Below are positions 1,935 to 48,583 of a stretch of DNA of 64,000 bases, one piece after another. Each line of letters begins with the position of its first letter. Within the stretch, counting starts at the first letter, position 1. The translations under genes and the position numbers were made by a program. This DNA is from an uncultured bacterium (lineage in GTDB: Bacteria > Patescibacteriota > Minisyncoccia > Phycocordibacterales > CAIZLB01): assembly GCA_903936565.1 (NCBI GenBank), contig CAIZVZ010000006.1, forward strand, positions 29,436-93,435, read 5' to 3'. Below the pieces are notes generated by a model, which searched no databases, was not told the DNA's origin, and worked only from the letters and a program-made list of their open reading frames with translations.

Positions 1935-2008
1935 TGTCGACGGGAGGGATCGAACCTCCGACCTTGGGCTTATGAGTCCCACGCTCTAACCGACTGAGCT
2001 ACGTCGAC
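1935..2008 (-). tRNA. tRNA with CAU anticodon (elongator Met or lysidine-modified Ile2; the two cannot be told apart from sequence alone)
   Basis: GTCGACGTAGCTCAGTCGGTTAGAGCG-TGGGA-CTCATAA-GCCCA...GGTTCGATCCC...CGTCGAC-A. G1-C72 argues against an initiator tRNA. Separated from tRNA-Asp by a short hairpin (1863-1879, acacacc gaa ggtgtgt). Confidence 0.75.
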
Positions 2009-2094: not shown

Positions 2095-2440
2095 AAGCCC
2101 CCTTTCGGAGACCTCTTTGTTAAATTGTTGCGGAGTCTGGAATTGCACCAGATCTACAAGGTTATGCTTACTACTACAGCTTTCACTGTTTACTTAAAAG
2201 TAATTTGGAGTCTGGACTATACCTTCATCTGCCCTAGACCGAAGTCCAAAACAGAGTCCACCGTCTAGTCTCTACACCTTCAGGTCTTTAAAAAAGACAA
2301 GCTTGGCTCGGTATTGCCACGTATTTTACCACAGAGGTTTCACCGAATTTGATGGATGTTTTCCATAGATCATCACTGTTCTATGAGCCCTAGTTGAGCC
2401 TCGCGTGCGACTGTAACACTCCCCCGCAATTTCAAATTTC
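2095..2440 (-). ncRNA. Candidate structured ncRNA with RNase P RNA-like motifs, roughly 340 nt; unconfirmed
   Basis: No ORF of 60 aa or more on either strand across 2009-2528. A minus-strand TTGATT-17-TATAGT promoter-like element sits near 2470-2500. Minus-strand motifs: GGCUCAACUAGGGCUCAUAG (compare RNase P CR-I GGGCUCCAUAGGGCA), GGUGAAACCUCUGUGGUAAAAUACGUGG (compare GGUGAAAGGGUGCGGUAAGAGCGCACC), and AGAUGAAGGUAUAGUCCAGAC (compare the E. coli 3-prime region AGAUGAAUGACUGUCCACGAC). The 5-prime UUGCGGGG can pair with 3-prime CUCCGCAA (P1-like). The transcript ends in a CUCC-GAAA-GGGG hairpin plus a U-run (2098-2118). Confidence 0.3.
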
Positions 2441-32917: not shown

Positions 32918-33005
32918 GGAGGATTGGATGAGTGGCTTAAATCAACAGTTTACTAAACTGTCGGCTTGGAAACAGGCCCGTGAGTTCGAATCTCACATCC
33001 TCCGC
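32918..33005 (+). tRNA. Type-II (Ser-like: long variable arm, discriminator G) tRNA whose canonical 7-nt anticodon loop TTACTAA reads anticodon ACU
   Basis: GGAGGAT...ACAGT-TTACTAA-ACTGT, variable arm GGCTTG-GAAA-CAGGCC, GTGAG-TTCGAAT-CTCAC, ATCCTCC-G. Its loop differs from tRNA-Ser(GCU) TTGCTAA by G34 to A. Confidence 0.6.
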
Positions 33006-41846: not shown

Positions 41847-44066
41847 ATGCCCGAAAAACCAAAACCAATTAACCTCAAATTCACAGAATATCCACTTTCA
41901 TCAGTAATTAGAATTAATCCTGATCAGATTTCACATCTCAAAAAATTAAACCTATTCACAATCGGTGACATACTGAGGCACTACCCCATACGATATGGTG
42001 GTGCATCAGAAGCGCAATACATCAATCAATTAACAGTAGGACAAAACGCCACAGTCTATGGAAGAATTGGAAAATTAAAGACTGGAAAAAGTTTTAAAAG
42101 CCATACCGCAATGGCAGAAGGAGTTATCTCAGATGACACGGGAAATCTAAAAGTAGTTTGGCTTCATCAACCATATATCGCAAAATTAATTCAAGAAGGC
42201 AGTCTGGTAAAGGCAACAGGTAAAGTAACCAAGCGTGGCGATTATGTTGGAATGTTAAATCCAGAAATAGAATCAGTTGGTGTTATGCCAAATCAAATTG
42301 GTCACAATCTCTTTGCCGGAACAGAAGCACCAATAGAACACTTCTCTCCCGTTTATCCAGAAACAAAAGGCGTGACCTCAAAATGGATTTATCACACACT
42401 TCAAAGAATATTTAAGAATCCCTTATTTGAAACAATAGAAGATCCAATTCCGGGGGATATATTAAAAAAATATAATCTCCCCTCTCTAAAGAGTGCGTTA
42501 ATTTGGATTCACACTCCACAAAAAGAAACTGACGCTCAGGTGGCAAGAAAAAGATTTTCATTTGAAGAAGTTTTTTATATTCAAATCAAGAATCAACAAG
42601 CCAGAGCCTCCGCTCAAAAAGAAAAAGCTTACGTGATTGAGCCCTCTTCCAAGAGCTTGAAAGAATTCACAGACAGATTCCCTTTTGCAATGACTTCTTC
42701 GCAAAAAAAATCAACAGATGACATCTTGAGTGATTTCCAAAAAGGTACACCAATGTCTCGTCTCCTTGAGGGAGATGTGGGATCAGGAAAGACTGCCGTC
42801 GCTGCAACTACAGCATATGGTGTCGTGACAACAAGACCTAAGAACAAAAATTCAAAGGTGCAGGATTATGGTAATTTACAAGTCGCATACATGGCACCAA
42901 CTGAAATCCTCGCCAAACAACACTTTGAATCATTTATTCAATATTTTAAACACATGCCAATTTCTATTGGCTTCATAAGCGGAACGGGGTGTAGAAAATT
43001 TCCATCAAAGGTACAGAATCGCGGGGCGGATGGTAACAGCGGTTGGACCGATATTTCAAGATCACAATTATTAAAATGGGTAGAGAGTGGTGAAATTGCA
43101 ATCTTAATTGGAACACACGCCTTAATTCAAAAGTCCGTAAAATTCAAAGACCTAGCGTATGTCATCATCGACGAGCAGCATAGATTCGGAACCGCACAAA
43201 GACAAAAGCTTGCACGCAAACATGACATCGTCCCCCACCTCCTATCAATGACGGCAACACCGATTCCAAGAACCTTAGCACTCACTCTTTATGGTGATCT
43301 AGACCTCTCACTAATCGATCAAATGCCAACAGGAAGAAAACCTATCATTACAGAAATTATTACAGAACCAAAACGGGAAGCTACATATGAGAAAATTAGA
43401 AAGGAATTAAAAGACGGCAGACAAGTTTATGTAATTTGCCCAAGAATCGAGGAAGCTGATCCAGACAAAGAACAAGCGCTCAATGTTAAGTCAGTAGTGG
43501 AGGAAGCAAAGAGATTAAAAGAAAGTGTTTTTAAAGATTGGAATATCGATATATTACACAGCAAGATGAAGCCAAAGGAAAAGGATGCGATTATGATGCA
43601 ATTTGAAAAGAAAGAAATTGATATTCTTGTTGCCACAAGTGTTGTTGAGGTTGGAGTAAATGTTCCAAACGCAACAATAATTTTAATTGAAGGTGCTGAG
43701 CGGTTTGGATTGTCACAGCTTCATCAATTACGCGGACGTGTAATTAGAAGTAATCATCAAGCGTATTGTTATGTCCTTAGCGATAGCAAGAGCAGTAAGA
43801 CAGTTGAGCGACTTAAAGCATTGAATACCGCAAAGAACGGTTTTGAATTATCCGAAATGGATTTGAAATTGCGTGGCGCTGGGGAACTGTATGGTGGCAA
43901 GCAATGGGGTATTACAGATATCGGAATGGAAGCAATCAAAAATATAAAAATGGTAGAGGCCGCACGCAATGAAGCCCAAATTATTGTTAAAGAAGATCAA
44001 ACACTAAGCTCATTCCCTATTTTGAAAGAGATGATGGATACGAAGAGAGAAATACATTTTGAATAA
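41847..44066 (+). CDS. recG: ATP-dependent DNA helicase RecG
   Basis: N-terminal wedge/OB domain, helicase motif I GDVGSGKTAVA, DEQH box (IIDEQHRFG), motif VI QLRGRVIRS; 739 aa. Confidence 0.85.
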   Translation: MPEKPKPINLKFTEYPLSSVIRINPDQISHLKKLNLFTIGDILRHYPIRYGGASEAQYINQLTVGQNATVYGRIGKLKTGKSFKSHTAMAEGVISDDTGNLKVVWLHQPYIAKLIQEGSLVKATGKVTKRGDYVGMLNPEIESVGVMPNQIGHNLFAGTEAPIEHFSPVYPETKGVTSKWIYHTLQRIFKNPLFETIEDPIPGDILKKYNLPSLKSALIWIHTPQKETDAQVARKRFSFEEVFYIQIKNQQARASAQKEKAYVIEPSSKSLKEFTDRFPFAMTSSQKKSTDDILSDFQKGTPMSRLLEGDVGSGKTAVAATTAYGVVTTRPKNKNSKVQDYGNLQVAYMAPTEILAKQHFESFIQYFKHMPISIGFISGTGCRKFPSKVQNRGADGNSGWTDISRSQLLKWVESGEIAILIGTHALIQKSVKFKDLAYVIIDEQHRFGTAQRQKLARKHDIVPHLLSMTATPIPRTLALTLYGDLDLSLIDQMPTGRKPIITEIITEPKREATYEKIRKELKDGRQVYVICPRIEEADPDKEQALNVKSVVEEAKRLKESVFKDWNIDILHSKMKPKEKDAIMMQFEKKEIDILVATSVVEVGVNVPNATIILIEGAERFGLSQLHQLRGRVIRSNHQAYCYVLSDSKSSKTVERLKALNTAKNGFELSEMDLKLRGAGELYGGKQWGITDIGMEAIKNIKMVEAARNEAQIIVKEDQTLSSFPILKEMMDTKREIHFE

Positions 44067-44120
44067 AGCAGGAAACCGGCCCGCGCGTACGCGGACCGGT
44101 GTTTGTTTGATTCGTCTGAA

Positions 44121-44645
44121 TCAGTCCCTGATGACAATGTCTGGCTGTGGACCATCATCATCCAGAAATGCGGCTGAAGCCGTCGATCTCCTTGCCGACA
44201 GGCAGGCTGGTTGCATCGAGTACATTGTGGCGCCACGGATCATCCTTCTGGCGCGCCTTTTCCATCCGTCGAGGGCGACAAGCTTTGGGGCATCAATGAG
44301 AAAGTCCAAATCATTTTCCACATCACCTCGGTTATCAATGATCCGTCGGATCTGGATAACTGAGGGGTCTCCAATGCGACCCTCCCTAGAAAACCCGACA
44401 TCGTGGCAGATCCTTTCGTAACTTGCCTTCGATATAGGGTAATCAATCTCATTGATACGCAGGGCATAACCATAGCCCCCAAACACCCTCACTCCAGACA
44501 GCGAGCATATGAAGCTCGGCTTATCTTCTACTTTCTTTTCTGGCGGTTTACTTCTTTTCATTGTGTGCAGGTTGGTTGAATAATCAGAGATGAAAGAAAA
44601 ATGGTGACCACCACCATTCTCAGTCTGTACAACATAATGACACAT
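44121..44645 (-). CDS. Hypothetical protein in a GC-rich (about 52 percent) islet adjacent to the tRNA with the UAU anticodon
   Basis: ORF boundaries coincide with the compositional island 44060-44650; no recognisable domain. Confidence 0.35.
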   Translation of the reverse strand: MCHYVVQTENGGGHHFSFISDYSTNLHTMKRSKPPEKKVEDKPSFICSLSGVRVFGGYGYALRINEIDYPISKASYERICHDVGFSREGRIGDPSVIQIRRIIDNRGDVENDLDFLIDAPKLVALDGWKRRARRMIRGATMYSMQPACLSARRSTASAAFLDDDGPQPDIVIRD

Positions 44646-44714
44646 TCTTTTACAAAATGCAAATTAAGATTTTACTTGTGCACCCCCCCAATCGAAGAAA
44701 AAGTATTATTTCTG

Positions 44715-44787
44715 TGCGAGCACTAGGATTCGAACCTAGGACCGGTCGTGTATAAGACGACTGCTCTACCAACTGAGCTATGCTCGC
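44715..44787 (-). tRNA. tRNA with UAU anticodon (would decode AUA, Ile)
   Basis: GCGAGCATAGCTCAGTTGGTAGAGCA-GTCGT-CTTATAC-ACGAC-CGGTC-CTAGGTTCGAATCCTAG-TGCTCGC-A; U33 and A37 are in place. Confidence 0.7.
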
Positions 44788-44875
44788 ATGAGCCCCATAT
44801 TACACCAGTTTTAATTTTTAGAAAAGGGCATATGAGGCGAGACAAACCGACCACCCCGACAATCACAAACTGAGC

Positions 44876-47014
44876 CTAGATAACCTCCGACTTCTTCTTT
44901 GGCACAATTCCATTCGCAACTAATATTGCATCGAACTCCGCTTGTTCCAATGTTTCCTTATCAATCAAAGCAATAGAAATTGCATCCAAGACCTTGCGCT
45001 TCTCTGTAATAACATCGAGTGCAATTTTATATGAATCATTCATAATCTTTGAAATTTCTTGATCAATTATAGCGCCAGTTGAAGCAGAATATTCCTGCTC
45101 CCCCACACCTCTACCTGACATTGCGCGTCCATTTCCTTCAAGTGCAATAGGACCAATCTTATCTGACATACCATATTTAGTAACCATGTCGCGCGCTAAG
45201 GCTGAAGCAACTTGCAAATCATTTGATGAGCCAGTGGTTAATTCATCGAAGATATGTTTCTCAACAACATATCCTCCAAGAGATACAACAATGTCATCCA
45301 AAAATTCCTTTTTGGATTGCAACTTCTTGTCTTCAATCGGAAGCTTCATGGTGTAACCCGCCGCACGTCCACGAGAAATAATTGAAACTTTATGAACTGG
45401 ATCAGCATGAGGAAGAACTGAGGCAAGAAGGGCGTGTCCCGCTTCATGATATGCAGTCAATTCCTTTTCTTTCTTTCCAAGTAAATGACTCTTTCTCTCA
45501 GGGCCTAACAATACTTTTTCAATTGATCTGATTAGATCGTATTGTGCAACCTTCTTTCTATCTTCTCTTGCGGCAAGAATAGCAGCTTCATTAACCAGTG
45601 AGTGAAGATCAGCACCAGATAGCCCTGGAGTACGAGATGCAATAACATCTAAATTGACATCCTCTGCTAGTGGCTTGTTTTTTGTATGCACCTCAAGAAT
45701 TGCAAACCTATCCTTTCTATCAGGTAGATCAATTACAACTCTTCTATCAAATCTTCCGGGACGAAGAAGTGCAGGATCCAATACGTCAGGTCTGTTTGTG
45801 GCAGCCATCATAATAACTTTTTCATTTGGTTCAAAACCATCCATCTCAACAAGAATTTGATTCAGTGTTTGTTCACGCTCATCATTTCCTCCACCAAAAC
45901 CAGTTCCTCTAACACGTCCAACCGCATCAATTTCATCGATAAAAATAATTGCGGGGGCTGAAGATTTTGCAAGCTTAAACAAATCACGAACACGTGACGC
46001 ACCAACTCCGACAAACATTTCAACGAACTCAGCACCTGATACTGAAAAGAATGCAACGCCAGCCTCTCCCGCAACAGCACGAGCAAGCAATGTTTTTCCA
46101 GTTCCCGGAGCACCAGTTAGCAATATCCCCTTTGGAATTCTTGCGCCAATATTAATAAACTTCTCAGGGTTCTTTAGGAAGTCCACAATTTCAGCAAGTT
46201 CTTGCTTTGCCTCCTTTGCACCAGCGACATCTTTGAATGTAACTTTTGTTTTTGTATCATCAGGAGAAATCATACGAGCCCTAGTTTGACCAAAGCTCAT
46301 CGCCTGCATATTTGCGCTTCTCGCCTGTCTGGACAGGTACCAGATTATAAAAATCAAGAATAGAATTGGTAGCGCAAATGGGAGAATGTTATTAACCCAG
46401 AACCACGCACCTCTGTCGTCCTTATTTTCAATTTTAACTTGTGCCAATTTTGCAGGATCAACGCCGAGATTTTTCAAAGAGTCTGAAAGAGAACTCTGCG
46501 CCTCCTTTTGTGTAGTCTTTTTCAAAACACCAGCGGGACTTGAAGAAGCGGAAGATGTGGCAGAAGACTTAACAACAGCGAGTGCCGTTGAAGATGACGA
46601 CAATAGAGAGGATGATGTTGCCGATCCGGGCACCGACACTTCCGACGAAGTAGAAAATGCTCCGTCTAGATATTCTATATCCACCTTATCCCCTGAAACC
46701 TCAACCTTCGCTACCCTACCAGCATTAATATCAACTGCTAATTCAGAAAGACTTATTTCTTTTATTGGAGTTGGGCTGGTGTAAAATAGAACGTAAATAC
46801 TTATGATTGCTACAAATATTAGAAATGTTGCAAAAAAATTATTTAGAATCAAAGCACCAACACCCTGCTGCTTTTTTGGAATCTTGGGCATTTTAGAACC
46901 CATTTGCTCTTTTGGTGTCTTATGATGCGTGTGTGGTTTATCTTTTGGCTCGTTTTTAGCCATATCTTCAACCTCCTTTTCCTCGATATTTGGAATATTA
47001 TTGTCTTTAGTCAT
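44876..47014 (-). CDS. ftsH: ATP-dependent zinc metalloprotease FtsH
   Basis: Walker [30 protein letters not shown] zinc motif, two N-terminal TM segments with a Ser-rich periplasmic loop. Start at MTKDNN is likely (the track extends to 47044). Confidence 0.9.
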
Positions 47015-47159
47015 GTGGGCAAAGTATACACAAATAATGAGCAAAATAAAAGTTTTTTCTAATGAAAGTCAACGAACATGGCCCCGAATATAACATTAAC
47101 CATCAAAAGCACCGAAGAATAACAATATATTGACGAAAGTGAAAAAATGTGCGAAACTA

Positions 47160-48173: not shown

Positions 48174-48568
48174 GGGGATGACATGCTTTGACACATGACT
48201 GGATTTTTTATGTGCGTAACCGAGTGCCCGAGAATCTCGTTAAACTTCCGGAACCCTTAGATGCAAAAGCCCAAAAAGCAGTCGCTTCTCCATTCTTTGG
48301 AGTAAACGACTTTGCATTTGCAACAGCTAGAGCCTAGCTCGCTATTGCAACGTTCTTACCTACTCTTTTTGCAAGTAGGATAAGGGCGCAATAATTGCAA
48401 AATAGATTTACAGAAATCTTAGACTGTAAATTAAAACAAATAAGATCGACGACGTTGTGTTTTGATAATTTTATAGCACCGCCGTTTAAAAACAAAAAAA
48501 ATCATCTACGCTACGTAGACTCATAAAGAAACATCGTGTGCACGCGGGTTCAATTCCCGCCATCTCCA
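48174..48568 (+). ncRNA. ssrA: tmRNA (ssrA)
   Basis: 5-prime GGGGATG pairs with 3-prime CATCTCC, including a G3-U70 wobble pair. T-arm GCGGGTTCAATTCCCGC, discriminator A. Internal candidate tag frame ending at UAG 48335-48337 (...NDFAFATARA). Located immediately downstream of smpB. Confidence 0.8.
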
Positions 48569-48583
48569 CATCAATAAAAATAG

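Follow-up and report, generated by a model that had tools for sequence, protein, structure and literature searches.

A conserved tRNA-Ile(UAU) gene and an adjoining hypervariable cassette between recG and ftsH in Paceibacteria

The 64-kb stretch of DNA described here (referred to as the window) belongs to a freshwater metagenome-assembled genome (MAG) of the Patescibacteria/Paceibacteria, which are ultra-small bacteria. Between recG and ftsH it carries a tRNA gene with the anticodon UAU, tRNA-Ile(UAU), and between this tRNA and recG a short GC-rich segment with one open reading frame (ORF). We hold it to be probable that an inherited, AUA-reading Paceibacteria tRNA here adjoins a hypervariable cassette with a genus-restricted gene. 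The tRNA, which is class-wide in Paceibacteria, would read the frequent AUA codon as isoleucine by means of a genomically encoded U34. The small cassette would comprise, in this species, a single gene for a soluble protein of 146 amino acids with its own bidirectional terminator.

The tRNA-Ile(UAU) gene and its conservation

Five tRNAs were called in the window using ARAGORN, among them, on the minus strand, a tRNA-Ile(tat) spanning 44714-44787. With the Rfam tRNA model it has the highest score of any tRNA in the window (73.6 bits for 44715-44787) and 0 non-canonical pairs. Its sequence is GCGAGCAUAGCUCAGUUGGUAGAGCAGUCGUCUUAUACACGACCGGUCCUAGGUUCGAAUCCUAGUGCUCGCA; the anticodon loop is CUUAUAC with U33 and A37 present, the discriminator base is A73, and CCA is not encoded. 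The initial annotation had described a tRNA with a UAU anticodon decoding AUA, and the ARAGORN call, the Rfam score and the intact pairing bear this out: it is a genuine AUA-decoder gene and no pseudogene. The same annotation regarded a genomic UAU anticodon as uncommon, which agrees with the nine tilS-less bacterial species with a UAU tRNA-Ile in one compilation (PMC3575796) and the 17 bacterial genomes reported with tRNAscan-SE 2.0 (PMC8450103).

A search with RecG yielded 80 species-level genomes, all of them Patescibacteria/Paceibacteria MAGs and mostly from freshwater. The RecG proteins of the closest genomes are 97%, 96% and 89% identical to that of the window, and all others are at or below 66%. 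In 62 of these 80 genomes recG is followed, at a distance of 5 bp to 4.7 kb, by a tRNA-Ile(tat) on one strand or the other; where at least 1 kb of sequence was available downstream of recG the tRNA was present in 59 of 66 loci, usually with ftsH next. The conserved gene order is recG - tRNA-Ile(UAU) - ftsH - tmRNA - smpB (tmRNA, transfer-messenger RNA). In a 32-sequence alignment double compensatory changes affect 16 of the 21 stem pairs, and no pair is broken. The fixed position between recG and ftsH together with this compensatory evolution argues that the tRNA was inherited vertically and is no passenger of an islet; its inclusion in a foreign-looking islet, as first proposed, can thus be dropped. 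Judged by its sequences, tRNA-Ile(UAU) is an old, selected and vertically inherited core gene of Paceibacteria.

The relatives contain 56 distinct UAU tRNA sequences, all with CUUAUA and with C, sometimes U, at position 38. The canonical Paceibacteria tRNA-Ile(GAU), as found in locus L078, has the loop CUGAUAA (A38). Many members of the UAU family have their acceptor stem and D-arm in common with a Paceibacteria tRNA-Ile(GAU), and in two loci, L057 and L058, the same gene in the same slot has a GAU anticodon instead of UAU, which suggests that the anticodon may switch between UAU and GAU within one gene. These two syntenic tRNAs (L057:3298-3371 and L058:7011-7084) retain the loop signature of the UAU family, CUGAUAC (C38).

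The meaning of AUA

In the 34 long ORFs of the window AUA accounts for 27.1 per 1000 codons and for 31% of the Ile codons, and it is commoner than AUG. At the AUA sites of the window's ftsH and recG genes the orthologous codon is ATT, ATC or ATA 47-50% of the time and ATG 2% of the time. The ATT and ATC sites show the same substitution pattern, and at the ATG sites the orthologues retain ATG in 51-52%. On this pattern AUA is an isoleucine codon in this host. Since AUA substitutes as an Ile codon and is frequent, a dedicated decoder for it is needed.

One might take the UAU tRNA as a mark of codon reassignment, AUA standing for an amino acid other than isoleucine, for example methionine as in many mitochondria. 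Beyond the unusual anticodon nothing points in this direction, and we find the idea scarcely credible: AUA sites exchange with ATT, ATC, Val and Leu codons as other Ile sites do, and only rarely with ATG; the acceptor stem and D-arm are those shared with tRNA-Ile(GAU); and the same gene in L057 and L058 carries the GAU anticodon.

Possible decoding without lysidine

As an isoleucine tRNA, and going by its anticodon and by codon usage, tRNA-Ile(UAU) would do the job of the lysidine-modified tRNA-Ile2(CAU). Such tRNAs are known from Mycoplasma mobile and a few other genera in which tilS is absent and either the isoleucyl-tRNA synthetase (IleRS) or the ribosome is adapted (PMC3575796). For M. mobile the absence of tilS, the unmodified U34, Arg865 of IleRS and the ribosomal discrimination against AUG have been shown experimentally (Taniguchi et al. 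2013, PMC3575796). A UAU tRNA-Ile also occurs in Bifidobacterium and Neorickettsia, which have a eukaryote-type IleRS, and in the archaea Nanoarchaeum and Korarchaeum ("tRNA-Ile3", PMC8450103), and 371 metagenomic tRNA-Ile(TAT) genes of unknown origin have been recorded (PMC3575796). The Paceibacteria tRNA resembles that of M. mobile in its genomically encoded UAU anticodon reading AUA as Ile, in A37 of the loop and in the small AT-rich genome. It differs in having C38 (sometimes U38), a position at which the canonical Paceibacteria tRNA-Ile(GAU) has A38, and in being class-wide with fixed synteny. In Bifidobacterium, Neorickettsia, Nanoarchaeum and Korarchaeum the UAU tRNA replaces tRNA-Ile2(CAU) where the C34-modifying enzyme is absent, which is a candidate likeness to the present case; unlike in those isolated genera, the gene is common here to at least 62 species-level genomes. 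With respect to the gene itself and to AUA standing for Ile, the Paceibacteria tRNA-Ile(UAU) appears to be a lineage-level addition to this known kind of decoder.

No ORF with the PP-loop motif SGGxDS, and nothing resembling tilS, was found in a motif scan of the window, where the large ORFs include DNA ligase, GatA and type IV pilus proteins. In approximately 1.2 Mb of related loci (the recG/ftsH surroundings from the 80 species) the motif had two matches, neither of them TilS-like. Within the literature searched we found no paper linking lysidine or TilS with Patescibacteria or the Candidate Phyla Radiation (CPR), and the Minisyncoccus genome paper gives a tRNA count only.

The tRNA might nevertheless be redundant: tilS and a tRNA-Ile2(CAU) could lie elsewhere in the genome, with the UAU tRNA serving as a supplementary reader of AUA. 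To this we would assign a distinct though less than even chance. Coexistence of tilS with tRNA-Ile(TAT) is documented in Lactobacillus casei, Cyanothece and Ferrimonas (PMC3575796), only about 64 kb of this genome has been seen, and the CAU tRNA at 1935-2008 could be of either the Met or the Ile2 type. Against redundancy, a TilS-like PP-loop protein was found neither in the window nor in the related recG/ftsH surroundings, and the two CAU tRNAs of the window can both be assigned, one as initiator-like and the other as an elongator. A tilS-hpt-ftsH gene cluster is common in other phyla, which likewise speaks against a tilS placed elsewhere. Lastly, the retention of the UAU tRNA throughout a class with reduced genomes speaks in favour of its being required.

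The CAU tRNAs and a group I intron

The tRNA(CAU) at 1935-2008, minus strand, was recognized by both ARAGORN and Rfam (69.8 bits), and its G1:C72 pair makes it elongator-type. In the related loci L091-L093 this tRNA has compensatory changes at 27:43 and 28:42. The suggestion of the initial annotation that it may be an elongator tRNA-Met rather than tRNA-Ile2 is therefore sound as regards a real gene of elongator type, and consistent with tRNA-Met. An A31-G39 mismatch at the base of its anticodon stem is kept in all four species (the window and L091-L093).

A second CAU tRNA, absent from the initial annotation, occupies 2128-2428 on the minus strand, where it is split by a group I intron. The Rfam model Intron_gpI matches 2193-2406 with 56.7 bits (gathering score 50), and the predicted intron of 230 nt (2167-2396) lies between U33 (2397) and C34 (2166), so that splicing in silico at U33-C34 gives a tRNA(CAU) of 71 nt. 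An intronless gene in L091 (4892-4963) differs from the predicted splice product by a single compensated pair in the T-stem. The copy in L092 (5393-5463), likewise intronless, is more diverged and has compensatory changes in all stems, and in L093 (4920-5230) the intron is kept. The acceptor stem is UGCGGGG/CUCCGCA with A73. It fits what we take to be the formylation determinants of the E. coli initiator, G2:C71, C3:G70 and G4:C69 together with a weak U1:A72, and on this basis we regard the tRNA as initiator-like. Its D-loop, which lacks GG, and its T-loop, UGCAAUU, are odd and conserved. In relatives ORFs for LAGLIDADG proteins occur between this tRNA and tRNA-Asp; in L093 they lie outside the Rfam intron match.

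Group I introns hide tRNA-fMet or tRNA-Ile2 in 36 bacterial genomes (PMC8450103). As with those of cyanobacteria and of Azoarcus/Acidovorax (PMC8450103), an intron of the self-splicing type here interrupts a CAU tRNA within its anticodon loop and is present in some relatives and missing in others. Unlike them, it has a CPR bacterium as its host, a predicted insertion site between U33 and C34, and a tRNA with the unusual GG-less D-loop and UGCAAUU T-loop. The tRNA set of the window, that is an fMet-like tRNA, an elongator CAU tRNA and a UAU tRNA, is what would be expected were AUA decoded by the UAU tRNA alone, and is no proof of it.

The hypervariable cassette

The window has a G+C content of 37.7%, as compared with 46.8% for 44121-44710, 51.1% for 44100-44500 and 50.7% for the predicted coding sequence (CDS) of 146 amino acids; the G+C fraction reaches 0.54 at 44100-44400. 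The initial annotation had reported a 590-bp segment of about 52% GC next to the tRNA. The elevation is real and the figure somewhat high, being 46.8% over 44121-44710. At third codon positions the G+C content (GC3) of the ORF is 53%, against 31% in recG and ftsH. Among the alleles of relatives, GC3 is 53-56% in three (window, L005 and L086) and 34-44% in L006 and L085, other genes being at about 31%.

A blastn comparison with the sister loci L005 and L006 delimits the segment sharply. Nucleotide identity is 88-90% in recG and ftsH. The similarity breaks off at 44065-44067, where recG has its stop codon, and is regained at approximately 44698-44710, the 3' end of the tRNA; for the gap between them blastn finds nothing in either locus. 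This leaves a cassette of approximately 630 bp, holding only the 146-amino acid CDS. What was first called a foreign-looking islet is thus indeed compositionally odd and hypervariable between the tRNA and recG, and the tRNA is not part of it.

The window, L005/L088 and L006 have RecG proteins that are 96-97% identical, yet their ORFs fall into three allele classes with mutual identities of only 21-33%. The window allele comes closest to that of L085 (44% identity), where RecG identity is 88-90%, and has 31% identity to that of L005, where RecG identity is 97%. Between the window and L005 the nonsynonymous divergence (dN) of the ORF, 0.83, approximates the synonymous divergence (dS) of recG, 0.84. 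As the allele classes are out of step with the flanking genes, we infer either allele exchange or the persistence of an old polymorphism: whole divergent alleles would be swapped by recombination in the conserved flanks, or would have been kept as ancient variants across species. Within allele classes the picture is different. The L005-L088 pair has dN 0.048, dS 0.27 and an omega of 0.18, and this dN/dS of about 0.18 between close alleles indicates that the ORF is under purifying selection within its classes. For L005-L089 the dN of the ORF is 0.30 against a recG dS of 1.56.

The gene of the cassette

The ORF, as first delineated, comprises 174 codons (44121-44645, minus strand). A terminator-like hairpin and its U-run (44597-44621) fall within the first 28 codons. 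This stretch is also left unaligned by every homologue; P0002-P0005 and P0007-P0011 align only from about residue 30. For these two reasons we rejected the 174-amino acid start, and M29 at 44561 is the most likely one, giving a protein of 146 amino acids (CDS 44121-44561). The predicted product is soluble and has a Lys-rich N-terminal tail. An AlphaFold2 (AF2) model has a predicted local distance difference test (pLDDT) score of 71 and a compact fold, the core of which reaches 80-90. Between the CDS and recG is a terminator with a GC-rich 11-bp hairpin (44076-44099) and U-rich tails on both strands; the two folds have energies of -27.6 and -27.1 kcal/mol and z-scores of -4.5 and -3.6.

In a word-indexed search of 5.8 billion proteins (E<=0.01) the ORF matched itself only. 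An exhaustive HMMER search of 1.8 billion representatives recovered P0002 (43% identity), P0003 (40%), P0004, P0005 and P0007, and a profile search from the family alignment added P0008-P0011. The family of this fast-evolving gene therefore has about ten known members, with ORFs of 127-152 amino acids, and the original designation as an orphan holds for the word-indexed search and gives way to a small set of distant homologues. All those with readable context occupy one and the same slot, in which the gene lies downstream of both ftsH and the tRNA, with recG converging on it. Since no member was found in loci with RecG identity at or below 66%, the family is, on present sequences, confined to one genus-level clade. 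No significant sequence or fold match to the protein or its family was obtained in Pfam, NCBIfam, PHROGs, PADLOC or PDB, in keeping with the earlier remark that the 174-amino acid ORF has no recognizable domains (no Pfam match of note).

Could the segment be non-coding, either a structured RNA or decaying DNA which is open merely because GC-rich sequence contains few stop codons? The lack of a known domain and of a Shine-Dalgarno sequence would agree with this, as would a protein divergence between the window and L005 close to that expected of neutral drift at the recG dS. We nevertheless consider it very improbable, because ORFs of 127-152 amino acids remain open and alignable in one frame across about ten lineages which have no detectable nucleotide similarity, dN/dS is 0.18-0.3 for pairs within allele classes, the AF2 model is compact with a confident core, and a strong terminator follows the stop codon. 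A scan of 43950-44900 against Rfam (E<=10), made for non-coding RNAs in the GC-rich segment, returned the tRNA and otherwise chance-level matches.

Two functions were considered for the product and set aside. A role in defence found no PADLOC match. A role in AUA decoding is at variance with the distributions, as the tRNA is class-wide and the ORF family is absent at RecG identities of 66% or less. As the protein is confined to one genus-level clade, we would guess, with little confidence, that it is accessory or conflict-related and varies between strains, and that it is not an AUA-decoding factor.

Is the cassette a mobile element?

In L005 (9967-10867) and L088 (54-956) a gene pair encoding AbiEii (PF08843) and DUF6922 (PF21956) lies between tRNA-Ile(UAU) and the small ORF, and on the contig of P0007 an insertion sequence (IS) transposase of the rve type is likewise inserted between them. 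These toxin-antitoxin pairs and the transposase mark the 3' flank of the tRNA as a flexible spot and a recurrent landing site. Within the cassette we detected no integrase, and the 3' end of the tRNA is not directly repeated at the cassette borders. Of the features of integrase-linked islands the cassette shows a content that varies between close relatives and a deviant composition.

Flexible genomic islands, of additive and replacement types, are known to adjoin tRNA genes. The cassette resembles them in its sharp break at the tRNA 3' end, its deviant composition, its gene content and alleles differing between close relatives, and the entry of toxin-antitoxin and IS genes into the slot. It is unlike them in being tiny (0.6-1.6 kb), in having neither an integrase nor an att repeat, and in always keeping one homologous gene in the form of very divergent allele classes.

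On the view that the GC-rich segment is a recently acquired mobile element or phage remnant integrated at the tRNA 3' end, the raised GC and GC3, the start of the cassette exactly at that end, and the AbiEii/DUF6922 and IS insertions of relatives would all be explained. We judge recent acquisition unlikely. Besides the missing integrase and repeat, there is no homologue in viral contigs, PHROGs or the defence library, every homologue among the 5.8 billion and 1.8 billion proteins is in the same slot of the same clade, and four independent metagenome assemblies of the species carry the segment in identical form. A phage origin was also sought directly and rejected: neither a relative of the ORF nor an exact copy of the anticodon arm of the tRNA turned up in IMG/VR contigs, BFVD gave no fold match, and nothing meaningful was matched among the PHROGs.

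Strength of the combined reading

Some points count against the interpretation of an inherited AUA-reading tRNA beside a hypervariable cassette. The check for tilS and tRNA-Ile2(CAU) covered 64 kb of this genome together with approximately 1.2 Mb of flanks from relatives; neither the window nor the related loci yielded an IleRS; the discordance of alleles may partly reflect lineage-specific rate acceleration, a weaker alternative to exchange; and M29 has no clear promoter or Shine-Dalgarno sequence ahead of it. A bolder version, to which we would give an even chance, is that Paceibacteria, a very large lineage of the CPR, are a class without the lysidine (TilS/tRNA-Ile2) pathway in which AUA is read solely by the syntenic tRNA-Ile(UAU) with its C38 loop, and that the neighbouring gene is polymorphic across species, its allele classes being held by balancing or diversifying selection.

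Other features of the window

The features discussed are collected in Table 1.

Table 1. Position of the features of the window and the evidence for each
Feature	Position	Strand	Remarks and evidence
Initiator-like tRNA(CAU) with group I intron	2128-2428	-	Rfam Intron_gpI, 56.7 bits; in-silico splicing; intronless homologues
tRNA(CAU), elongator type	1935-2008	-	ARAGORN; Rfam, 69.8 bits; kept in L091-L093
recG	41847-44066	+	Conserved flank; ORF; Pfam RecG_wedge/DEAD/Helicase_C on identical gene; in 80 related loci
Bidirectional intrinsic terminator	44061-44109	both	Between the convergent CDS and recG; RNA folds, terminator scan
Hypervariable cassette	44068-44697		Bounded by recG stop codon and tRNA 3' end; blastn against sister species
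Predicted CDS, 146 amino acids, clade-specific family	44121-44561	-	Homologue alignments, shared slot, dN/dS, AF2 model
Terminator-like hairpin and U-run	44597-44621	-	Between tRNA and CDS start; terminator scan, RNA fold centroid, sequence
tRNA-Ile(UAU)	44715-44787	-	ARAGORN; Rfam RF00005, 73.6 bits; family covariation
ftsH	44876-47044	-	Conserved flank; ORF; Pfam AAA/Peptidase_M41; synteny
tmRNA	48174-48571		In conserved block with ftsH

The window also contains, at 32918-33005 on the plus strand, a class II tRNA-Ser with the anticodon ACU (loop UUACUAA) which is conserved across Paceibacteria, with compensatory changes in its stems, and scores below the gathering score of the Rfam tRNA model. 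It is found as well in L007, L008, L012, L013, L016, L026, L028, L032, L033, L046, L053, L055, L075, L082 and L086. In several loci (e.g. L008, L012, L028, L032 and L082) it lies a few hundred bases from tRNA-Ser(GCU); in the window the two are approximately 4.4 kb apart. Bacteria seldom encode A34 in tRNAs other than tRNA-Arg. In the genes of the window AGU is three times commoner than AGC (16.8 vs 5.3 per 1000).

Implications for Paceibacteria

The decoding of AUA without lysidine has so far been regarded as rare and confined to a few genera (Mycoplasma, Bifidobacterium and Neorickettsia). If the tRNA-Ile(UAU) of Paceibacteria is indeed the sole AUA reader, the class would be by far the largest bacterial clade known to lack lysidine decoding, and a lineage-wide adaptation of IleRS and/or the ribosome, or a new modification of U34, would be implied by which the reading of AUG is avoided. 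Paceibacteria are also a plausible home for part of the metagenomic tRNA-Ile(TAT) pool, and the cassette next to the tRNA represents a compact hypervariable locus in a streamlined genome. The value of the finding, beyond this single locus, lies in the class-wide conservation of the tRNA and the dispensability of TilS which it implies. TilS, usually essential, may be dispensable in a major bacterial class, and this would bear on the annotation of tRNAs in the CPR, on the practice of treating tilS as nearly universal, and on the means by which U34 is kept from reading AUG.

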